Position numbers and translations under genes: made by a program. Source: a virus (lineage: Duplodnaviria; Heunggongvirae; Uroviricota; Caudoviricetes). From it: DNA of 11,340 nucleotides. The stretch's first letter is position 1; every line of letters starts with the position of its first letter. Below, piece by piece: positions 1 through 11,340 of this stretch. The notes beneath the pieces are model-generated. The model was not told where the DNA came from. It made no database searches and saw nothing but the letters and a program-made list of their open reading frames with translations. Where the stretch lies: the IMG/VR virus record IMGVR_UViG_3300029647_000018. One strand, given 5' to 3'.

Positions 1-77
1 AAAAACGGTTCTGTGAAAGTGACACGAACCGATCTCCATCGATGTTACTCACCGATCTCCTTCACGGTAATACGCAC
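1..77. repeat. Left copy of a perfect inverted repeat (exact reverse complement of 11256..11332); begins at window base 1, so true length may exceed 77 bp
   Basis: Direct comparison: reverse complement of 11256..11332 equals 1..77 base for base; identity breaks at 78 versus 11255. Contains two 10-bp direct repeats ACCGATCTCC (28..37, 51..60) around an ATCGAT palindrome (38..43). Confidence 0.95.
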
Positions 78-319
78 TTATGGCAGTGAATGAAATACGC
101 ATCGCGGATAACAGCGCGTTTTGTCGCTTCCGGCCACTTATCATCCCAGCGGTCAACCGAAAATGACCACGCCAGCCACGGCAGCAGATTTGCCGGACAG
201 GTATCCGGGTTCCACAGCTCACGAATACTGACCGGCGTTTTTTCAATTTCCGCACAGGCTTTTGCGGCGGCGACTTCAAGCGGTGATGAGCCGGTCGGCA
301 GCAGTCGCGAATCACTCAT
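62..319 (-). pseudogene. I: Truncated baseplate protein gpI-like: about 81 native residues then CVLP-stop supplied by the inverted repeat (P2 gpI is about 176 aa)
   Basis: ORF starts MSDSRLLPTGSSPLEV..., matching my recollection of the P2 gpI N-terminus; ATG at 317..319 overlaps J stop (312..314). The last 4 codons and the stop (62..76) lie inside repeat 1..77. Immediately downstream of J as in P2. Confidence 0.8.
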
Positions 320-1220
320 CCGAGCCTCCCGTCACGACGCGGTATTCAGTACAGAAAGACGCCTGCGTATTGTTGAGCACGATGTCGGCCAGTGGTGCGG
401 CCAGCTCGACACGCTGCACGCCTTCCACATGCAAAGCGGCATAAATGGCAGACAGACGGATGTCGCGCCCCAGCCGGTGCTGTGCCGTGATGTACGCTTC
501 CAGTTTTTTCACGGCAGCAGCGCGGATGGGTTCGCTTTCGGGGCCAGGGTAAAGGTAAAGCGTGGCATTTATCTGGTATTCAACAATGGCGGCAGACTGC
601 ACGGTCACGCGGTCGGCCACCGGCCTGACGTCCTCGCCATTAAGGGCGTTACGCACCACAGCCAGCAGGTCTTCGGATGCGACGCCGTTATTTTCACGTG
701 ACAGCACAGAGATAGTAACGCAGGCCGGAGACGGACTGGTGACAGAAATATCGGCGACACGCCCGTCAGCACTGCGACCATGATACTGATAGGCACCCAC
801 CGACCCGGCGACGCTTAAACCTTCAAACGCCTGCTGAATACGCAACCGATAATCGGTGTCAGATTCCATCACTGCCGGTGTCGGCGGGATGGTCGAATCG
901 TCTGCCGGGGTGATAGTCAGGCGCGTGGTGTTGTAATTGGCACCAATCACATCAAGGTCATTACCGGCGGCACAGGCCAGCATCACCGCCCGTGCGGCCT
1001 CATTCACACGCTGACGCCAGATAAGCTCACGATAAGCATTTTCCTCCAGCAGCTTGACGAGAGGCTCGGATTCCAGCGTCAGGGTACGGGCGACCGCCTC
1101 CTGCTGGTCTTCCGGGTAAAGGGAAATCAGTGTCGCCTTGCGTTCGGCGAGAATGGTTTCAAAGTCCAGCTCCTCGACCACATCCGGTGCGGGTAGCTGG
1201 TTCAGGTCGATAATCGGCAT
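312..1220 (-). CDS. J: Baseplate assembly protein gpJ (baseplate wedge), 302 aa
   Basis: 302-aa ORF MPIIDLNQLPAPDVVEELDFE..., same length as P2 gpJ; position between W and I as in P2. Confidence 0.92.
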   Translation of the reverse strand: MPIIDLNQLPAPDVVEELDFETILAERKATLISLYPEDQQEAVARTLTLESEPLVKLLEENAYRELIWRQRVNEAARAVMLACAAGNDLDVIGANYNTTRLTITPADDSTIPPTPAVMESDTDYRLRIQQAFEGLSVAGSVGAYQYHGRSADGRVADISVTSPSPACVTISVLSRENNGVASEDLLAVVRNALNGEDVRPVADRVTVQSAAIVEYQINATLYLYPGPESEPIRAAAVKKLEAYITAQHRLGRDIRLSAIYAALHVEGVQRVELAAPLADIVLNNTQASFCTEYRVVTGGSDE

Positions 1221-1224
1221 GGTT

Positions 1225-1572
1225 TCAACTCACAGGGATGGTTAACGAAAGTGGCTGGCCGGTGTCGTTGTGCTGGCCGGTTAACGTGACCGTCATTCGC
1301 CCGTCAAAACTGCGCGCCGTAGTGACGGATGACAGGGTGACGCGGGGTTCCCATTTCAGCACCGCCATGTAACAGGCGACCTTAATCTGCAACTCAAGCG
1401 CCTGGGTCTGCGGCTGGTCAATCATTGATGCCAGCAACGAGCCGTAATCACGACGCATCACCCGTGAGCCGACCGGTGTGCGCAGGATATCGCCGATACT
1501 CTGGCTGATATGCTCAAGGTCAGTGACAGTCAGGCCATCACTGCGATTCATTCCGAGATAACGTGCTGTCAT
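1225..1572 (-). CDS. W: Baseplate protein gpW (gp25-like), 115 aa
   Basis: 115-aa ORF, same length as P2 gpW; start overlaps V stop as ATGA (1569..1572); flanked by V and J. Confidence 0.9.
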   Translation of the reverse strand: MTARYLGMNRSDGLTVTDLEHISQSIGDILRTPVGSRVMRRDYGSLLASMIDQPQTQALELQIKVACYMAVLKWEPRVTLSSVTTARSFDGRMTVTLTGQHNDTGQPLSLTIPVS

Positions 1573-2204
1573 AGAGGACTCCCGGTTGTGCCGCCGCTGT
1601 CTCCTGGGTGTTTGTGGGTATGCAGTACCTTACCGTTTGATGAGAGTTCACCGCCGGTGTGTTCAATGTTGCCGCGCATCGTCCCGCCCTTCTGCACTTC
1701 CAGCGTGCCGGTAATCAGCCTGTTGGTGCAGACCACCTCCGGTGTGTCCAGGGTGACGCGGGTTGATGCTTTCACCATGACCACCGGCACCGTGGCAGTA
1801 ACAGAATCAGAAGCCGTCACGCTGACCGTTTTAATTCCGCTTACCGTGAGTGCACTGGTTTCGGGTTCATATTCAATCACCGCTCCGTCAGGGAAACGGA
1901 TATGCAGGGCATCCGCCGACGCAGACGGCGCGGGGTTATCGCCGGAATAAATCCCCGGCAGAACGAACGCCGTGTCGAGTTCACCGCCCACGGCCAGAAT
2001 CAGCACCTGCTCCCCCACGGAAGGTGCCCACCATGTGCGCGAACGACCGGCACGATGGGTCAGCCACTGAAGCCAGTCAGTGCACATGCCGCCGGTCTGC
2101 ACACGGCAGCGACCGGCGTTAAGGTCGGTTTCGACGACAAGGCCGGTGCGGATCATGTTGCGCAGTGCGCGCGCGAGTTCCTGAATATTTGCGAGAGTGT
2201 TCAT
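1569..2204 (-). CDS. V: Baseplate spike/hub protein gpV, 211 aa
   Basis: 211-aa ORF MNTLANIQELARALRNMIRTG..., same length as P2 gpV; first gene after the S-V intergenic gap. Confidence 0.92.
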   Translation of the reverse strand: MNTLANIQELARALRNMIRTGLVVETDLNAGRCRVQTGGMCTDWLQWLTHRAGRSRTWWAPSVGEQVLILAVGGELDTAFVLPGIYSGDNPAPSASADALHIRFPDGAVIEYEPETSALTVSGIKTVSVTASDSVTATVPVVMVKASTRVTLDTPEVVCTNRLITGTLEVQKGGTMRGNIEHTGGELSSNGKVLHTHKHPGDSGGTTGSPL

Positions 2205-2270
2205 AACGGGAAGGATGCCGCCGGGTCATACCGGCGGCAATGTGACGATGAGGTGTCGGGAATGGCACAA
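2205..2270 (-). promoter_or_regulatory. S-V intergenic region; expected location of the Ogr-dependent late promoter for the V-W-J-I operon; contains a GC-rich hairpin (2217..2238)
   Basis: P2 has a late promoter upstream of V (established knowledge). In the sequence I see only a 66-bp gap and the dyad GCCGCCGG-gtcata-CCGGCGGC; no exact TGT-N12-ACA element found (nearest is TGT-N10-ACA at 2254..2269). Confidence 0.3.
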
Positions 2271-2723
2271 CTAACGGTCGAGGTGAGCCAGGATAATCTC
2301 TTCAATCATCTGCACATCCTCACCGGTAAAGCCGAGCAGAGGACGCGCCGGATAATCAATTTTCTTACCGTCTTTCCGGGTTTCTTCCGACAGACCGAAC
2401 TGATGCACGCTGGCGATTTTCGGTGACTTCCCGCCGTAAAATTCCATTGATGCCTGTTCAGGGCTGGCGCGGATATGCAAAAAACGACTGGTGATAAGTT
2501 TCGCAAACATTTTTCGCTTAACGCGACCGGTCTTTTTTCTGGCGCTCTGCTGCTGACGTGGCGCGTAGGGTGTGCCGTCCGGGGCTTTCTGAGCCATCAC
2601 CCGGCGCTGCTGACTCTGCCGCAGACGTTTCGCCAGTTCGGCACTCAGTCGCCGACGCCCTGACGGTGACAGCGATTCAGTCAGTCCGGCCAGCCGGTCT
2701 TCAAAACGCTTAAACTCATTCAT
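2271..2723 (-). CDS. S: Tail completion protein gpS, 150 aa
   Basis: 150-aa ORF, same length as P2 gpS; start (2721..2723) overlaps R stop (2716..2718). Confidence 0.9.
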   Translation of the reverse strand: MNEFKRFEDRLAGLTESLSPSGRRRLSAELAKRLRQSQQRRVMAQKAPDGTPYAPRQQQSARKKTGRVKRKMFAKLITSRFLHIRASPEQASMEFYGGKSPKIASVHQFGLSEETRKDGKKIDYPARPLLGFTGEDVQMIEEIILAHLDR

Positions 2724-3186
2724 CCCACTTGCTCACCAGTTCGCCATTGATATAAAGCTCCATCGGGCGGGTGACCGGCTCCGGCGGCGGGGGTTCCGGA
2801 ATATTCTTCACATGCAGTGCGCCGTCAACCTCACTGACCAGCGTGCGCTCGGTCAGCATCAGGCTGATGCTGATATCAAAGCTGCTGTCATTGTTGATGT
2901 CTGCATAAAACGTGAAGCCCTTTTTCTGGCCTTCGTCGGTGGTCATGATGTCGGGCTGATTTTCCCGCAGCCACGCCAGCACCGGCACGATGAGCAGGTC
3001 AAAATCACCGGTAAAGTCGGTCACAATGACATTGAGCGTGTAACGCTTTTCGAATGACAGCGACGCCGCCAGTGTGGAGGCAATACTCCCGTTATCCACG
3101 AATATCCGCAGCATCTCTGGACTGGTTTTCAACACCGTGACGGCATCAGTCAGCGCCCTGCGCAGGCTGTCGGGTTTGAGCATCAT
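2716..3186 (-). CDS. R: Tail completion protein gpR (155-156 aa; start may be the second ATG at 3181..3183)
   Basis: ORF MMLKPDSLRRALTDAV...; P2 gpR is 155 aa; tandem ATG ATG at 3181..3186. Confidence 0.88.
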   Translation of the reverse strand: MMLKPDSLRRALTDAVTVLKTSPEMLRIFVDNGSIASTLAASLSFEKRYTLNVIVTDFTGDFDLLIVPVLAWLRENQPDIMTTDEGQKKGFTFYADINNDSSFDISISLMLTERTLVSEVDGALHVKNIPEPPPPEPVTRPMELYINGELVSKWDE

Positions 3187-3436
3187 TTTCGTCCTGACAG
3201 TGTTTAATCATTTTTACCTGGCTGGCACAGCGTGCCAGCGCGTCCTCAAGCTGCCGGATATCGGCACTTAAATCGCCGTTCTTCTGCGGGTCACTGCCCG
3301 GCATCGGGCAAAGACTCACTTTCGGGCAGGCGTTGTGGACAATCACTGGCGTCGGTGCAGGCGGGGCGCTGGTGCAACCGGCGCACAGCATCAGGCAGGT
3401 CAGCACCGTACCAGCGGCGAAAATCCTCGTTTTCAT
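3146..3436 (-). CDS. lysC: LysC, Rz1-like outer-membrane lipoprotein spanin (o-spanin), 96 aa, nested out of frame in lysB and running into R
   Basis: Internal ATG at 3434..3436 in an alternative frame of lysB gives MKTRIFAAGTVLTCLMLCAGCTSAPPAPTP...: signal-peptide-like segment with Cys-containing lipobox-like motif and a Pro-rich stretch. 96 aa equals the P2 LysC size. Confidence 0.75.
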   Translation of the reverse strand: MKTRIFAAGTVLTCLMLCAGCTSAPPAPTPVIVHNACPKVSLCPMPGSDPQKNGDLSADIRQLEDALARCASQVKMIKHCQDENDAQTRQPAQGAD

Positions 3437-3716
3437 TAAGTAACCTCGTGATGGTTTTCTCGCGCTGTGCTTCACGCTTCGCAGCGTTCTCCAGCTCCTG
3501 ACGCAGAGCCACCTGCGCCAGCTCGTTTTTGTCTGCTCTGGTGAGCGCAACATGAAGCTGATTTTTCAGCATGGTGATGGTCGTCTGCTGTTCACTGGCG
3601 ACGTTGTTCGCCCTGTCCAGCGAGGCGCGCAGGCTGGCATTTTTATGTTTCACCAGAAACAGACCGGCCACCGCCAGCGATAACAACACGACCAGCACAG
3701 TCATCAGCTTTGACAT
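3291..3716 (-). CDS. lysB: LysB, Rz-like inner-membrane spanin (i-spanin), 141 aa
   Basis: 141-aa ORF with N-terminal hydrophobic anchor MSKLMTVLVVLLSLAVAGLFLV followed by a charged, coiled-coil-like region; same size as P2 LysB. Confidence 0.88.
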   Translation of the reverse strand: MSKLMTVLVVLLSLAVAGLFLVKHKNASLRASLDRANNVASEQQTTITMLKNQLHVALTRADKNELAQVALRQELENAAKREAQREKTITRLLNENEDFRRWYGADLPDAVRRLHQRPACTDASDCPQRLPESESLPDAGQ

Positions 3717-4129
3717 GGTTCCCGCCCCTCAAAACGCTGACGGCAGGCCGTACGTATCAGCCGGAAGAACAGCGACGCCACGAGATAAATCAGCGCGGTA
3801 AAAATCCACCCGGCAGCGACCAGCGAGATAAACGTCGTCACCATCACCACCAGAGCCGCCGCCCGTCTGCGCCACGGCACCGGCTGCAAAAACAGCGACG
3901 CGACAATCTTCACGGCCAGCGATTCCGGCGGCAGCTCCCGCCCGTAGCGTTCCAGCACATACTCCGTGGTATACACGCCGACACCACCGGCAACCACACA
4001 GATAACCGTCGCCAGAATCGCCCAGGCGGCGACAAAATTGACGGCCACGCTCTGCGGGTAAATCAGGGACAGTGCCAGCATCAGCGCCAGCGACACGTTC
4101 AGCATCAGTGAAAGGGATAATTTCTTCAT
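3704..4129 (-). CDS. lysA: LysA, multi-pass membrane lysis-timing protein, 141 aa
   Basis: 141-aa ORF with 3-4 hydrophobic helices; position between K and lysB; P2 LysA is 141 aa; GGAG 9 nt upstream of ATG. Confidence 0.85.
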   Translation of the reverse strand: MKKLSLSLMLNVSLALMLALSLIYPQSVAVNFVAAWAILATVICVVAGGVGVYTTEYVLERYGRELPPESLAVKIVASLFLQPVPWRRRAAALVVMVTTFISLVAAGWIFTALIYLVASLFFRLIRTACRQRFEGREPCQS

Positions 4130-4143
4130 GGTGTTTACTCCGT

Positions 4144-4641
4144 TTAAGCCGGTACGCCGCCAGCGGTACGCCAGACGGTGACCAGTTTTTCCAGTGAATG
4201 CTCACGCTGACCGTAACCGGCTCCCGGCAGGGACGCCCAGATATTGCGACAGCGTGAAATGGCGCGCTCAATGCGTCCCGCCCGGATGTCATCCAGTGCA
4301 CCGCGTTCGCGGATCAACTGAATGGCAAGTCTGTCCTGTGACAACGGACTGAAATCCGGCAGGGCAAGCTGTTTGCGGTAATGCGGCCAGAACAGGTAAA
4401 GCTGCTGATAGCGACCGGAGGCCGTGGATTTTTCACCGCGACGGTTAAACACCTTCGCCGGTCGGCCATGCGCGAACGGGTGGTCACTGTAGTCAGTGAA
4501 AATTTCCGGCTTCCCGTCCAGTCCGGTGACTATCACGTCATAGCCCCGGTTTTTCGTCAGCGGATGATTCGCCGTCCCTTCGGACACGGCCAGCATGTCG
4601 AGAAAGGCCGCGATATTCTGATGCGTGTTAATTACCGGCAT
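4144..4641 (-). CDS. K: Endolysin gpK (lysozyme-like), 165 aa
   Basis: 165-aa ORF MPVINTHQNIAAFLDMLAVSEGT... with lysozyme-like E...D...T N-terminal motif; start overlaps Y stop (TAATG at 4639..4643). Confidence 0.9.
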   Translation of the reverse strand: MPVINTHQNIAAFLDMLAVSEGTANHPLTKNRGYDVIVTGLDGKPEIFTDYSDHPFAHGRPAKVFNRRGEKSTASGRYQQLYLFWPHYRKQLALPDFSPLSQDRLAIQLIRERGALDDIRAGRIERAISRCRNIWASLPGAGYGQREHSLEKLVTVWRTAGGVPA

Positions 4642-4922
4642 TACGGTTTCCCCCTGCCCTTAAAACGGCGCTGAATGGCAATCTCAATCACCTGATAACC
4701 GGCGATACCCAGCATGGAGCCGATACCGCACACCGCAGGCAGTGACAGGTCAGGAAACTGCACCAGAACAACACCGGCAACCATCGAGACAAAACCACCG
4801 AGCAACATGCGCCCGATAAACAGACGCGGGGTGATGGGTTCACCACCGGCAAGCACCTTGCCGACAACAATCAGCACCCCAATCATGAAAAGCGACAGGA
4901 CGCTTTTTTCTTCTGCTGTCAT
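4641..4922 (-). CDS. Y: Holin gpY, 93 aa
   Basis: 93-aa ORF with hydrophobic transmembrane segments and charged C-terminus; directly upstream of the endolysin; same size as P2 gpY. Confidence 0.9.
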   Translation of the reverse strand: MTAEEKSVLSLFMIGVLIVVGKVLAGGEPITPRLFIGRMLLGGFVSMVAGVVLVQFPDLSLPAVCGIGSMLGIAGYQVIEIAIQRRFKGRGKP

Positions 4923-4925
4923 GCG

Positions 4926-5129
4926 TTACTCCCACAGATTGACAGTTTCAGCCACGGGCGCGGCCTGAACGTCGGGCAGTTCGACGGCGGTGCCGTGTGG
5001 CAGCACCGCACCCAGTTCAGCCAGTCCCGGATTTGCGGCGAGCACGGTCTCAACCACGCCCTCAGTGCGCCCGTAATACCGGACACAAATGGCGTCGAGC
5101 GTGTCGCCCTGTAGCGCAAAGGTCTTCAT
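4926..5129 (-). CDS. X: Tail protein gpX (small LysM-like protein), 67 aa
   Basis: Internal start MKTFALQGDTLDAICVRYYG... gives 67 aa (P2 gpX size); ATG (5127..5129) overlaps L stop (5129..5131) as ATGA. The track's 90-aa version is an upstream extension. Confidence 0.85.
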   Translation of the reverse strand: MKTFALQGDTLDAICVRYYGRTEGVVETVLAANPGLAELGAVLPHGTAVELPDVQAAPVAETVNLWE

Positions 5130-5638
5130 CAGATTTGACTCACGATGCAGCGCGGCTTGTCCTGGATACGCGCCACCGCCCAGCGCATATCCCGCCACAG
5201 TTCATCAATGGTGCTGTCAATGCTGTCAGCCTTCTTGTCACCTTTCGCACTGGCATCCACGCCGCGATAACGCTCATAAAGCGACGCGGTCGCCATCGCA
5301 CACACGGCGCGCTCGTAGTAAAAAACTTTGATGCTTTCACCGTCGATGTCGTCCGCCGGGACGTCCGCCAGACGCGTAAAACCGGCAGTAATTTTCTGTT
5401 CGCGGTACTCGTACAGCTCCGCATTCGTTTCAGCCATGCCTGACTTGATGGCCTCACGCAGACGGGCGGGGGCGACGGTCTGCTCAAGGCGCATACGTTC
5501 CCGGACGCGCTTCGGGTCGATATCGGGAAAAAAGAACGTGTTTTTAATCACCGGCTCGTCGCCTGCCGGTTGCGGGATGACCACCGTACCCTCACCGGAC
5601 ACGGGAGCCTCCTTTCGCGGAATAATCAGCGTCATCAT
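5129..5638 (-). CDS. L: Head completion/stabilisation protein gpL, 169 aa
   Basis: Start at tandem MM (5633..5638) preceded by GAGGTGG gives 169 aa (P2 gpL size), MMTLIIPRKEAPVSGEG...; the 189-aa track ORF is an upstream extension. Confidence 0.88.
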   Translation of the reverse strand: MMTLIIPRKEAPVSGEGTVVIPQPAGDEPVIKNTFFFPDIDPKRVRERMRLEQTVAPARLREAIKSGMAETNAELYEYREQKITAGFTRLADVPADDIDGESIKVFYYERAVCAMATASLYERYRGVDASAKGDKKADSIDSTIDELWRDMRWAVARIQDKPRCIVSQI

Positions 5639-5737
5639 GACCACCTCTGAAAAGTCGGGCGGTGGACGCCGGTGCAGTGTCAGATGATTCACCCTCACTG
5701 ACCGGCGTGCCGCCCTGGCGCGGGGCGCATTCGGTTG

Positions 5738-6481
5738 TTAACTGGCTTTCTTTTTCGGGCGTCCACGTTTTGCCGGTGTCACGCTCCGGGTCTTACGCGG
5801 GGCGCGGGTGGCCGCTTTGGGTTGTGGCTCCGGCTTCGGTTTCAGCTCCCGCTCCAGTCGTTCAATCTCTTTTTTGACGCCTGCCTGACAGTCGAGCTGT
5901 GTCGCACGTTGCAGGTGCGCCAGTGCACCTGCGGCATCACCAGCGTCACGCAGAAACAGACCGGTGATTTTGTGCAGCTTTGCGCGCACTTCATCAGGCA
6001 TGTCAGCCGTGGCGGTCAGTTCAAGGGTGTCCGTCAGCAGGCGGGTATCCACGGATTCACCGGCAGCGTGAGCGCGCATGGCCGCGAGCGCGACCTCCTC
6101 GGTGAACATGTACGGCGGGGTGCGGCGGTGTTTACCCGGCATGGTCAGACCGTACTTCAGGGCATAACGGGCAATCTCCAGCGCACCGGCAATATCGCCG
6201 GTATCCAGACGCCACAGCATGACCGTCATCAGAATGTCATCCTGTGCACCTTTGCCCTGCTCCAGCACGCCGTTCACCCACGGCAACCAGAACGGCAACA
6301 GTTCGCGTTTTTTCGCGGCCTTAAGCTCTTTTGAATAAATCGCTTTCAGTGTGCGCTGGTCTGCGGCCAGCTTGACCAGCATCTGCTCATAGACAGTTGC
6401 ATGTCGCAGCGGGGCGGCTTCCCGCTGCGCGGTCATCGCTGCCGAGACCCGCATCATGTGGCGCTGTGCGGGACTCGTCAT
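5738..6481 (-). CDS. M: Terminase endonuclease (small) subunit gpM, 247 aa
   Basis: 247-aa ORF (P2 gpM size) with a very basic C-terminal tail ...TPAKRGRPKKKAS; immediately downstream of N with a 3-nt spacer. Confidence 0.9.
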   Translation of the reverse strand: MTSPAQRHMMRVSAAMTAQREAAPLRHATVYEQMLVKLAADQRTLKAIYSKELKAAKKRELLPFWLPWVNGVLEQGKGAQDDILMTVMLWRLDTGDIAGALEIARYALKYGLTMPGKHRRTPPYMFTEEVALAAMRAHAAGESVDTRLLTDTLELTATADMPDEVRAKLHKITGLFLRDAGDAAGALAHLQRATQLDCQAGVKKEIERLERELKPKPEPQPKAATRAPRKTRSVTPAKRGRPKKKAS

Positions 6482-6484
6482 CGG

Positions 6485-7558
6485 TTACGCTCCCGGCTCT
6501 GCGGTCGCCTTAGCAGGTGTGGAGAAATCACCGACCTTAATTTTTTCCACCAGACAACCGGCTGCGTAGTCTTCCACTACGTAATCAATGTTCATTGACT
6601 CGTAGTTCTCCACGCGGTCGAGTTTCGGGTTTTCCACAATCACGCGGCGATGGCTGTCATCCATGTAGTAGATGGACAGGTTTTCCAGCTTCGTGATGAG
6701 CATCGCATCCGCCGGGAAGTACGGGACGCGTACCGCTGGCAGGTTGCCGATGCGTTTCTGGCTGATGATGACGTCAGCGGCCAGCATCTCGCTGTTGTCC
6801 TGCTCCTTGTTGACGATGGGGAAATACTTGTCCGCCAGTAGCTGACGCCCCACAATCACCACAAGGTCAGGGTCTTCCTGATACCACGGTTCAATCAGGT
6901 TGTTGGTCGCATCCATCACCAGTGCATCAAGGCTGGCATAATCACCGCCCTTACCCACGCGGATAACCTCAGAGGTGGTGCGGCCTTCCTCGTCAGTGAC
7001 CTTGCTCATCACGCGCGCCGGGGCTTCATTGCGGTATTTCTGCAGCCAGCCGACCGCCACATCCTGCAGCATCGGATTGCTGTTGCGGTCAGAGGTTTCG
7101 GCACGCTTCACGCCGTTAAAACCGGCCATGATGAAATCAAGGGACTGGCGTTTGATAATGGCGTTACGGATACGGAGCTGGAAATCCTGATAACGCGCCC
7201 ACAGGTCAAGCGTTTTGTAGCGGATATAAAAATCGAAGTTAATCTGGTCGCATTCGTACTTACTGGACGCCAGCTTCGAGAAGTCCTTCGGCTGACGCTC
7301 GGTGCCACCGGCGGTGTCGGTGGTGCTGGCGATGGAGCCGGTGACACCGATACCAATTTTTTCCCCTTTCATTTCGCTGACCGGCACAATGTTGATGCGG
7401 GTCAGGAAATCAGAGGACTCCTGCATGGTGTTCATCAGGGTCTGGGTGACCGACGGTTCAACGGTGAATTTTTTCGACACATCACCGGCGTCGATGCCGT
7501 TCAGTTCGGCAACACGGGACAGGTAAGCATTAAATTTAAAGCGGGTTTCCTGGCGCAT
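6485..7558 (-). CDS. N: Major capsid protein gpN, 357 aa
   Basis: 357-aa ORF MRQETRFKFNAYLSRVAELNGI..., same length as P2 gpN; AGGA 7 nt upstream of ATG. Confidence 0.95.
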   Translation of the reverse strand: MRQETRFKFNAYLSRVAELNGIDAGDVSKKFTVEPSVTQTLMNTMQESSDFLTRINIVPVSEMKGEKIGIGVTGSIASTTDTAGGTERQPKDFSKLASSKYECDQINFDFYIRYKTLDLWARYQDFQLRIRNAIIKRQSLDFIMAGFNGVKRAETSDRNSNPMLQDVAVGWLQKYRNEAPARVMSKVTDEEGRTTSEVIRVGKGGDYASLDALVMDATNNLIEPWYQEDPDLVVIVGRQLLADKYFPIVNKEQDNSEMLAADVIISQKRIGNLPAVRVPYFPADAMLITKLENLSIYYMDDSHRRVIVENPKLDRVENYESMNIDYVVEDYAAGCLVEKIKVGDFSTPAKATAEPGA

Positions 7559-7616
7559 AGTTTTTCCTGAAATTAAGTGTTAATCGTGAAGGTTTTCCCG
7601 GACTGACTGACGCCGA

Positions 7617-8471
7617 TCAGCAGTTCGTCATCAGGGCGTCACCGCCACCGCCGGTGGCCTTGCTGCGGCGCTGCTGGGTCAGACTTTCGGTGTGGTCGAG
7701 ACTGTTTTTCAGGCGGGTGAATGCCTGGCTGGTTTCATCCGCCCTGTCAGTCACATCCTGCTTAAGTGCGGAAAAGGCGTTTTCCATCTCAGCGAGGCGC
7801 TGCTCAGTGGCGCTCAGTTTTTCCTGCACATGTTCAGCAACAGCGGTCACCGCTTCATGCACGTCATTCAGACGGGCGTCATCGCTGGCCTGTTTGCGGC
7901 CAAAAATGGATTTCACCTTTTCGGTCAGGGCGGTGAACACGGTTTCAGGCAGGTCTTCAAATTCCAGCTCAACGGGCGTTGCCACTGAAATCAGATTTTC
8001 AGGGCTTAATTTGAAGCGGTTCAGAGGGTTGTGTTTTGCCGTGCGGCAGAATTCCAGGTATTCCGTGCCGAGGCTTGCCGGGTCATCGGTGACGGCCAGC
8101 CCCACCAGATAACATTTGCCGGTGTTGGCAAAGTTCGGCTGAATTTCCATTGAGGTGTAGACCTTCTGCGCGGCCTTGTTCATCGCGATAAGGTCATCGG
8201 TCGGGGTGATTTTCGCAAACAGCGCCCATTTGCCTTTCAGCGCCGAATCATCGTCAATCTTTTCAGCCTTCAGTTCGACCACATCGCCATAACGCTTAAA
8301 AATACCGTCAGGCAGGATGCCGCGCAGATGTTCCAGGTTAATGCGGCAACCATAGACACGCGGGTCAAAGGTTTCGGCCATTTCCTGAATATCCTGCGCA
8401 CTGATGACACGCCCGTCACAGGTGTCACCCTCAACGCCGATACGAAAGAATTTTGAGACTTTTTTTGCCAT
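7617..8471 (-). CDS. O: Capsid scaffolding protein gpO with N-terminal serine protease domain, 284 aa
   Basis: Start at MAKKVSKFFRIGVEGDT... (ATG 8469..8471) gives 284 aa (P2 gpO size). Residues D19, H48 and S107 are present at the positions I recall as the P2 gpO catalytic triad. Confidence 0.9.
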   Translation of the reverse strand: MAKKVSKFFRIGVEGDTCDGRVISAQDIQEMAETFDPRVYGCRINLEHLRGILPDGIFKRYGDVVELKAEKIDDDSALKGKWALFAKITPTDDLIAMNKAAQKVYTSMEIQPNFANTGKCYLVGLAVTDDPASLGTEYLEFCRTAKHNPLNRFKLSPENLISVATPVELEFEDLPETVFTALTEKVKSIFGRKQASDDARLNDVHEAVTAVAEHVQEKLSATEQRLAEMENAFSALKQDVTDRADETSQAFTRLKNSLDHTESLTQQRRSKATGGGGDALMTNC

Positions 8472-8644
8472 TGTCAGGAGTCCTGAATAGTGATTAGAGG
8501 AGTCACATGTCGGCATCAGTTTCCCGACGATGCGCATCCTCCGCCATCAGTCCCGGATGGCTTATCACTGACACAACAGCACCTTAGCGAATCGCGGGGC
8601 GCGACTCAGTAGCCTTGCCGTGTATTCATCACGGCGAGGTATTC
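8472..8644. promoter_or_regulatory. Divergent O/P intergenic region; expected site of the two divergent Ogr-dependent late promoters
   Basis: 173-bp non-coding gap between divergent operons, as in P2. Seen in sequence: imperfect dyad TGG-N12-ACA (8558..8575), direct repeat CATCAGT (8514..8520, 8545..8551), small hairpin 8509..8528. Exact promoter elements not verified. Confidence 0.5.
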
Positions 8645-10417
8645 ATGACCATCACCACAGACACCACTCTTTTGCACGACCCGCGTCGTCAGGCGGCGCT
8701 GCTGTACTGGCAGGGGTTTTCCGTGCCGCAGATTGCCGCCATGTTGCAGATGAAACGCCCGACGGTGCAGAGCTGGAAACAGCGCGACGGCTGGGACAGC
8801 GTTGCCCCCATCAGCCGTGTCGAAATGAGTCTGGAAGCGCGGCTGACCCAGCTCATTATCAAACCGCAGAAAACCGGCGGTGACTTCAAGGAAATTGACC
8901 TGCTCGGACGCCAGATTGAACGACTGGCACGGGTAAACCGCTACAGCCAGACCGGCAACGAGGCAGACCTTAATCCGAACGTCGCTAACCGCAACAAAGG
9001 CGGGCGTCGCAAACCGAAAAAGAATTTTTTCAGTGACGAGGCTATCGAAAAGCTGGAGCAGATTTTCTTTGAGCAGTCTTTCGACTATCAGTTGCACTGG
9101 TATCGCGCCGGGCTTGAGCACCGCATCCGCGATATCCTGAAATCCCGCCAGATTGGCGCGACGTTTTATTTTTCCCGCGAGGCGCTGCTGCGCGCCCTGA
9201 AAACAGGTCATAACCAGATTTTTCTGTCGGCCAGTAAAACGCAGGCGTATGTATTCCGTGAATACATCATCGCCTTTGCCCGTCTGGTTGACGTTGACCT
9301 GACCGGTGACCCGATTGTCCTGGGCAATAACGGCGCAAAACTGATTTTTCTCGGCACCAACTCCAACACCGCGCAGAGCCATAACGGCGACCTGTACGTC
9401 GATGAGATTTTCTGGATCCCGAATTTTCAGGTACTGCGTAAGGTGGCATCAGGTATGGCCTCACAGAGTCACCTGCGCTCGACCTATTTCTCCACCCCGT
9501 CCACGCTGGCGCACGACGCCTATCCGTTCTGGTCCGGTGAACTGTTTAACCGGGGACGCGCCAGCGCCGCCGAACGCGTGGAAATCGACGTCAGTCATAA
9601 CGCCCTTGCCGGTGGGCTTCTCTGTGCGGACGGCCAGTGGCGGCAGATTGTCACCATTGAGGACGCCCTGAAAGGTGGCTGCACGCTGTTCGACATTGAG
9701 CAGCTCAAACGCGAAAACAGCGCCGACGATTTTAAAAACCTGTTCATGTGTGAATTTGTTGACGACAAGGCGTCGGTGTTCCCGTTCGAGGAGCTGCAAC
9801 GCTGCATGGTCGACACGCTGGAAGAATGGGAAGACTATGCGCCGTTTGCCACCAATCCGTTCGGCTCACGTCCGGTATGGATTGGTTACGACCCGTCACA
9901 CCGTGGCGACAGCGCCGGATGCGTGGTACTGGCACCGCCGGTGGTGGCCGGTGGCAAATTCAGAATACTTGAGCGTCACCAGTGGAAAGGCATGGACTTT
10001 GCCACCCAGGCGGAATCCATCCGCAAACTCACCGAAAAATATAACGTTGAATACATCGGGATTGATGCCACCGGCCTCGGTGTCGGCGTGTTCCAGCTCG
10101 TGCGCTCGTTCTATCCCGCCGCGCGCGATATCCGCTACACGCCGGAAATGAAAACCGCAATGGTGCTCAAGGCAAAAGACGTCATCCGCCGTGGCTGTCT
10201 GGAATATGACGTCAGCGCCACCGACATCACCAGCTCGTTTATGGCTATCCGCAAGACCATGACCAGCAGCGGACGCAGCGCCACCTATGAGGCCAGCCGC
10301 AGCGAGGAAGCCAGCCACGCCGACCTCGCCTGGGCGACCATGCACGCCCTGTTAAATGAGCCACTCACCGCCGGTATCAGCACTCCGCTGACATCCACCA
10401 TTCTGGAGTTTTACTGA
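8645..10417 (+). CDS. P: Terminase ATPase (large) subunit gpP, 590 aa
   Basis: Start MTITTDTTLLHDPRRQAALLYWQGF... (ATG 8645, GAGGT upstream) gives 590 aa (P2 gpP size); candidate Walker A-like FLSASKT and Walker B-like LYVDE motifs; stop overlaps Q start (TGATG 10415..10419). Confidence 0.93.
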   Translation: MTITTDTTLLHDPRRQAALLYWQGFSVPQIAAMLQMKRPTVQSWKQRDGWDSVAPISRVEMSLEARLTQLIIKPQKTGGDFKEIDLLGRQIERLARVNRYSQTGNEADLNPNVANRNKGGRRKPKKNFFSDEAIEKLEQIFFEQSFDYQLHWYRAGLEHRIRDILKSRQIGATFYFSREALLRALKTGHNQIFLSASKTQAYVFREYIIAFARLVDVDLTGDPIVLGNNGAKLIFLGTNSNTAQSHNGDLYVDEIFWIPNFQVLRKVASGMASQSHLRSTYFSTPSTLAHDAYPFWSGELFNRGRASAAERVEIDVSHNALAGGLLCADGQWRQIVTIEDALKGGCTLFDIEQLKRENSADDFKNLFMCEFVDDKASVFPFEELQRCMVDTLEEWEDYAPFATNPFGSRPVWIGYDPSHRGDSAGCVVLAPPVVAGGKFRILERHQWKGMDFATQAESIRKLTEKYNVEYIGIDATGLGVGVFQLVRSFYPAARDIRYTPEMKTAMVLKAKDVIRRGCLEYDVSATDITSSFMAIRKTMTSSGRSATYEASRSEEASHADLAWATMHALLNEPLTAGISTPLTSTILEFY

Positions 10418-11271
10418 TGAGCAAGAAAAAAGGGAAAACACCGCAACCTGCGGCAAAAACAATCACCGCCAGCGCCCCGAAAATGGAGGCATTCACCTTT
10501 GGTGAGCCGGTGCCGGTACTCGACCGCCGTGACATTCTGGATTACGTCGAGTGCATCAGTAACGGCAGATGGTATGAGCCACCGGTCAGCTTTACCGGTC
10601 TGGCAAAAAGCCTGCGTGCTGCCGTACATCACAGCTCACCGATTTACGTCAAACGTAATATTCTGGCTTCAACGTTTATTCCGCACCCGTGGCTTTCCCA
10701 GCAGGATTTCAGCCGCTTTGTGCTGGATTTTCTGGTGTTCGGTAATGCGTTTCTGGAAAAGCGCTACAGCACCACCGGTAAGGTCATCAGACTGGAAACC
10801 TCACCGGCAAAATATACCCGCCGTGGTGTTGAGGAGGATGTTTACTGGTGGGTGCCGTCCTTCAACGAGCCGACACCTTTCGCGCCCGGCTCCGTGTTTC
10901 ACCTGCTGGAGCCGGATATTAATCAGGAGCTGTACGGCCTGCCGGAATATCTCAGCGCCCTTAATTCTGCCTGGCTGAATGAATCAGCTACGCTGTTCCG
11001 CCGCAAGTATTACGAAAATGGCGCACATGCCGGATACATCATGTACGTCACCGATGCCGTGCAGGATCGCAACGATATCGAAATGCTTCGCGAAAACATG
11101 GTTAAGTCGAAAGGCCGCAACAACTTTAAAAACCTGTTTCTCTATGCCCCGCAGGGGAAAGCTGACGGCATTAAAATTATCCCACTCAGTGAAGTGGCAA
11201 CGAAGGACGATTTTTTTAATATCAAAAAAGCCAGCGCCGCTGACCTGCTGGACGCGTGCGTATTACCGTGA
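10417..11271 (+). pseudogene. Q: Truncated portal protein gpQ-like: about 280 native residues then CVLP-stop from the inverted repeat (P2 gpQ is about 344 aa)
   Basis: ORF MSKKKGKTPQPAAKTITASAPKMEAF... matches my recollection of the P2 portal N-terminus; the reading frame enters repeat 11256..11332 and stops at 11269..11271. Confidence 0.8.
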
Positions 11272-11332
11272 AGGAGATCGGTGAGTAACATCGATGGAGA
11301 TCGGTTCGTGTCACTTTCACAGAACCGTTTTT
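11256..11332. repeat. Right copy of the perfect inverted repeat (reverse complement of 1..77)
   Basis: Exact 77/77 reverse-complement identity with 1..77; 8 further bases (11333..11340, aaattacc) have no counterpart inside the window because the left copy starts at base 1. Confidence 0.95.
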
Positions 11333-11340
11333 AAATTACC

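Follow-up and report, generated by a model that had tools for sequence, protein, structure and literature searches.

A P2-like Escherichia coli prophage with ISEc12 insertions in baseplate gene I and portal gene Q

The stretch of viral DNA analysed here (11,340 nucleotides, hereafter the window) opens with a reading frame that resembles the N-terminus of the P2 baseplate protein gpI, stops at about half the length of that protein, and runs at its end into an inverted repeat shared by both termini of the DNA. A sequence-only reading had proposed that gene I is cut at about residue 81 and fused to four repeat-encoded residues and a stop (CVLP-stop). The locus thus raises the question of whether this is a short but genuine baseplate gene or a broken one and, if broken, what the repeat is and where the remainder of I and the neighbouring tail genes H and G are to be found.

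The short baseplate gene and the inverted repeat

The reading frame encodes 85 amino acids. Residues 1–81 are identical (81/81) to the intact 203-amino-acid gpI of E. coli CFSAN064036, and pairwise alignment with the 176-amino-acid gpI of P2 gave 79 identities over the same 81 residues, which bears out the proposed P2 gpI-like N-terminus. The break falls exactly after codon 81, as had been estimated: where intact gpI proteins continue from Lys81 into GTIGAIRRV..., the window reads CVLP-stop. The proposed fragment length of 85 residues holds, whereas the expected full length of about 176 does not, as the intact allele of this lineage has 203 residues, with a C-terminal extension that differs from that of P2. 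The 85-residue product therefore lacks 122 C-terminal residues. It matches the Pfam profile PF09684 (Tail_P2_I; E = 4.3e-30, 104.8 bits, cut-off 20.6), with residues 7–81 aligned to profile positions 1–75 of 139; the match ends there, so the domain is incomplete and cut mid-way. The C-terminal fibre-binding region of gpI is missing from the fragment, and residues 82–203 lie across an insertion sequence (IS). The gene follows V, W and J contiguously, the position of I in P2; unlike P2 gpI, only the N-terminal 81 residues are present in one piece.

The last 15 bases of the reading frame (four codons and the stop, window 62–76) lie within the inverted repeat, again as read from the letters alone. 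Its arms (1–77 and 11256–11332) are 77 nt long and 100% complementary, a match that chance would not produce. The repeat consists of the tips of two copies of ISEc12. The istB-proximal (IRR) tip of this element, TGCGTATTACCGTGA, translates as CVLP-stop (codons TGC GTA TTA CCG TGA), and the same tip borders the istB genes annotated by RefSeq as 'IS21-like element ISEc12' in four other loci (L001–L004). The element boundary was set by aligning six junctions, which are common from TGCGTATTACCGTGAAGG... inward and divergent outward; ISEc12 therefore starts at that TG. By this alignment, 76 of the 77 nt of the repeat derive from the IS; the match at the 77th base is due to chance. The reference complete copy, in genome GCA_054792675.1 (L038), is a 2581-bp istA–istB element of the IS21 family, and in the two loci L007 and L038, which share the window's I junction, the tip is followed by a 248-amino-acid IstB_IS21 protein and a 513-amino-acid rve transposase. 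IS21-family elements carry several repeated transposase-binding motifs in their terminal regions; two copies of a candidate motif, GGAGATC(G/A), lie within the first 50 nt of IRR, and IRL has several. Both window ends are insertions of ISEc12, and hence of the IS21 family (Table 1); the remainder of the copy in gene I lies beyond the left edge of the window.

A repeat placed exactly at the contig ends, with a length that varies by assembly (77 and 85 nt in the window, 127 nt in the metagenomic k127 assembly), might also be expected of a chimeric or hairpin contig. The retained length is, however, an assembler effect, and the junctions themselves are real: independent assemblies contain both of them, and a 5.15-Mb contig has the I junction in its interior. 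An assembly artefact was rejected on this independent recurrence, and we regard its probability as negligible.

We also considered whether a gpI of about 85 residues could be a genuine variant, functional in some P2-like phages. The exact 85-amino-acid protein recurs in 27 blocks of the public assembly collection, and one NCBI record labels it 'phage tail protein I'. Yet in every fetched locus with a readable junction it adjoins the ISEc12 tip at the same base, its Pfam domain is broken, and CVLP-stop is IS sequence that also terminates the unrelated gene Q. Among phage records, all 472 matches run past residue 81 as normal gpI, and the CVLP ending occurs in none. A genuine short gpI was rejected on these junction data and has next to no chance of being correct. 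Across 5,426 complete E. coli genomes, the exact I junction was not found in one piece (0 genomes); matches came only in two pieces, with ISEc12 in H instead. The short baseplate ORF is real, and it is gene I of a P2-like prophage split by ISEc12.

Table 1 Features of the window and of the insertion sites compared with it
Feature	Position	Strand	Remarks
ISEc12 outer 76 nt, istB-proximal (IRR) end, copy in I	1..76	-	100% identical to ISEc12 positions 1-76 of L038
Truncated gene I ORF	62..319	-	81 native codons, then CVLP-stop supplied by the IS tip
Target site of the I insertion, duplication ATAAG	77..81	-	Other IS end, then ATAAG and the rest of I (L038, L045-L051)
P2-type late genes J, W, V, S, R, lysC/B/A, K, Y, X, L, M, N, O	312..10417 (block)	-	Intact
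Terminase P	8645..10417	+	Intact, part of late block 312..10417
Truncated portal gene Q ORF	10417..11271	+	280 of 344 native codons plus CVLP-stop
Target site of the Q insertion, duplication ACGCG	11252..11256	+	L044: 126 nt IS left end, ACGCG, rest of Q
ISEc12 outer 84 nt, IRR end, second copy in Q, opposite orientation	11257..11340	+	100% identical to ISEc12 positions 1-84
ISEc12 insertions in Q	window 11240-11270; L003 14559; L004 14570	same orientation	Duplications ACGCG, CGCGC, TCCCC

The late-gene block and portal gene Q

The best DNA matches of the window were E. coli chromosomes with P2-family annotation. Between the two truncated genes, the ORFs of the late block have the lengths found in intact relatives, and the 17 window proteins compared (all but lysC) have identical sequences in GCA_054792675.1 (L021), which is 99.991% identical to window positions 1–11256 with a single mismatch (L021/L038). 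The window represents the late-gene block of a P2-like E. coli prophage. Its J protein is widespread (2949 blocks of the assembly collection); its S protein is rarer.

Portal gene Q is cut after codon 280 by the second ISEc12 copy, which is inverted relative to the copy in I. Intact Q encodes 344 amino acids in L021/L038, and the portal protein of the window is without its last 64 residues. Because both insertions fall on a codon boundary, I and Q both end in CVLP-stop. The block between the two IS copies measures 11.18 kb, and the istB-proximal ends of both copies face inward.

Outer junctions and the missing gene halves

The window holds the inner IS tips only, and the outer junctions were read by proxy from an identical metagenome contig and a 99.99% identical genome. 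In the latter (L038), the order is ...CACTGCCATAAG, the complete ISEc12, then ATAAGGGCACTATAGG..., with the 5-bp duplication ATAAG and the intact remainder of I (residues 81–203) on the ATAAGGGCACTATAGG side; beyond I lie H (378 amino acids), G, an invertible fibre segment with its invertase, FI and FII. In the gut metagenome ERZ918399, contig k127_14615 is 100% identical to the window. In a second contig from this sample, k127_49585 (L045), an initial 126 nt of the IS left end is followed by ATAAG and the remainder of I, then H, G ... T, U, D and ogr, and a third, k127_12368 (L044), joins 126 nt of the IS left end through ACGCG to the rest of Q, an AAA ATPase, an S8 peptidase, A ... and cox. 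As the sequence-only reading had remarked, the window contains neither H nor G. The search it had suggested for the missing 3' half of I and for H and G located all three immediately past the IS, both in the closest genome (L038) and in the metagenome with the window-identical contig (L045). The 3' half of I, H and G are retained; the window lacks them only through a contig break, since short-read assembly breaks inside the repeated IS.

The invertible tail-fibre segment of this lineage, beyond H and G (L038 15599–18914; L045 497–3812), has on the opposite strand genes for an alternative fibre C-terminus and for assembly, and it also carries a resolvase-type invertase. Downstream of Q, the cargo differs from relative to relative (L021 13255–16661; L044 774–4180; L015–L024): an AAA ATPase and an S8 peptidase in the lineage of the window, and a reverse transcriptase, OLD-like/AAA_15 ATPases or restriction-modification genes in others. 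This stretch seems to be a site at which P2-like prophages carry variable cargo, perhaps including defence genes.

The left end of ISEc12 contains an ATG (MKIRN) that is in frame with the downstream fragment if the right-end junction encodes CVLP-stop and the duplication measures 5 bp. Two left-end fusion ORFs were predicted before look-up, a 128-amino-acid 'I and a 70-amino-acid 'Q (the latter assuming the duplication ACGCG), and both were found exactly in public assemblies (L038 15213–15602, L045 114–500 and L044 114–326), where they are called as genes (P0001, P0016). Inspection of the sequence upstream of these fusion ORFs gave no evident ribosome-binding site, so complementation between the gene halves is not expected.

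An IS-mediated deletion or rearrangement would offer another account, in which recombination with a further ISEc12 copy, or a deletion adjacent to the IS, removed or moved the 3' part of I, H and G, so that the genome would truly be without them beside this block. One contig speaks for it: in L007 (Logan ERR13961122; 2938–2967), a full ISEc12 leading out of I(1–81) joins the chromosomal gene yciE from codon 17 onward, without a 5-bp target duplication. However, L007 runs only 30 nt (k-1, with k = 31) past the IS and may reflect a path through the assembly graph. Two predicted yciE fusion proteins were both missing from the assembly collection, and the I–IS–yciE junction was absent from all complete genomes searched. 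In that sample, the IS copy in I may have recombined with a copy in yciE, or the contig may be chimeric. L007 was set aside as a recombinant or chimeric outlier, and the reading of the window is unaffected by it. Also against rearrangement, the sample with the window-identical contig holds the complementary junctions with the correct duplications, the 99.99% identical genome has the IS followed by ATAAG and the rest of I, and three more samples (ERZ27297083, ERR3256387 and ERZ28621537) each contain both the I' contig and the contig that joins the IS left end to 'I. We therefore consider a deletion or rearrangement very unlikely. Complementary junctions with correct duplications mark both events as simple transpositions.

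The geometry of the locus would also permit the 11.2-kb block and its two inverted ISEc12 copies to move as a composite transposon or to flip as an invertible cassette, as identical inverted IS copies bracket the block and could invert it by homologous recombination. However, the native prophage position was the only one at which the block was found, and each IS has its own target duplication, which indicates two insertions rather than movement as a unit; in a composite transposon the outer ends would both be left ends, and no second location was seen. A composite transposon was rejected on the native position and the separate duplications, and movement as a unit appears extremely improbable.

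Target sites of ISEc12 and consequences for the prophage

We are highly confident that a P2-like E. coli prophage and two simple ISEc12 transpositions, into I and Q, account for the window. One copy interrupts the baseplate wedge gene I between codons 81 and 82, with the duplication ATAAG, and another, in the opposite orientation, interrupts the portal gene Q between codons 280 and 281, with the duplication ACGCG. Short-read assemblers are unable to cross the repeated IS, and the block between the copies emerges as a contig of its own that retains a few dozen bases of IS at either end; these make up the terminal inverted repeat. Past one IS copy come the remaining portion of I, then H, G and the other tail genes; past the other come the remaining portion of Q and the early genes.

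Because GCA_054792675.1 has the I insertion with an intact Q, I was hit first among the relatives and the copy in Q was acquired second; the same order is probable for the lineage of the window. The exact 284-amino-acid Q fragment was found in only 5 contigs, against the 27 blocks with the 85-amino-acid protein, which fits this order. With the late block undamaged and one base different from the relative, both insertions would be recent.

ISEc12 is strikingly frequent in P2-like prophages; in unrelated E. coli strains it lies in H (L001, L031), in O (L030), in the O region (L025) and downstream of Q (L002). Seven other complete copies were compared, of which six have a 5-bp duplication and one an 8-bp duplication. 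Gene Q has received three independent insertions no more than 12 bp apart, in one orientation and each with its own 5-bp duplication; relative to the window (...GGACGCG, then the IS), the insertion point is shifted by 1 base in BCE-1 and by 12 bases in STE15. Complete genomes add at least seven distinct insertion positions in the 400 bp or so downstream of Q. The Q region is possibly a hot spot for insertion. A comparison of nine ISEc12 insertion sites showed no shared target motif. Gene I has, starting 25 nt upstream from the insertion point, the sequence TGCGTATTTCAT (window 82–105, minus strand), which is almost identical with the left-end tip of ISEc12, TGCGTATTTTCAT; the likeness may be due to chance or may be a targeting cue. 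It is conceivable, though we think it rather doubtful, that ISEc12 prefers P2-like prophages as targets, above all the 3' end of Q and the DNA immediately after it: a rough estimate placed its occurrence in these prophages far above random, a figure biased by clonality, by relaxed selection on prophages and by the sampling of loci.

A close parallel is the tssM::ISEc12 insertion of E. coli EC958 and ST131 clade C, which has a 5-bp duplication (PMC10711316). There, too, this element with a duplication of this length splits a structural gene of a contractile machine, is inherited clonally and leaves junction sequences recognisable in short-read assemblies. Here, by contrast, the genes hit are I and Q of a P2-like prophage, not a type VI secretion system (T6SS) gene, and two inverted copies bracket 11.2 kb. 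As in other cryptic or defective P2-like E. coli prophages with IS, an otherwise intact late block is, by all appearance, disabled by mobile-element insertions; there is no difference in kind from other IS-bearing P2-like prophages, only a particular pair of sites (elsewhere ISEc12 lies in O, H, Q or downstream of Q). The element, its family, the target duplication and the IS-split prophage structural gene are all already known, and the case is real but ordinary.

The P2 baseplate wedge consists of two gpJ and one gpI, whose C-terminus connects to the fibre protein gpH (bioRxiv 10.64898/2026.09.14.750843), and gpI is the counterpart of TssG in the T6SS (PMC4604203). A gpI without its C-terminal 122 residues would lack the part that holds gpH, and the IS, which interrupts the V-W-J-I-H-G operon in antisense orientation, probably has a polar effect on H and G; both points suggest a tail defect. 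A portal protein without 64 residues suggests a head defect as well. The prophage most likely makes neither functional tails nor functional heads.

Beyond correct annotation, the importance of these findings is small. The 85-amino-acid 'phage tail protein I' and the 284-amino-acid 'portal protein' are halves of IS-split pseudogenes, and a prophage that carries them should be scored as defective. The two junction sequences could possibly serve as clonal markers for this E. coli lineage. More generally, when the two ends of a short-read contig form a perfect inverted repeat, the usual cause is a pair of IS copies and not a property of the intervening DNA. If the target preference of ISEc12 were to hold true, this element would recurrently disable the P2-like family rather than land in its members by chance.
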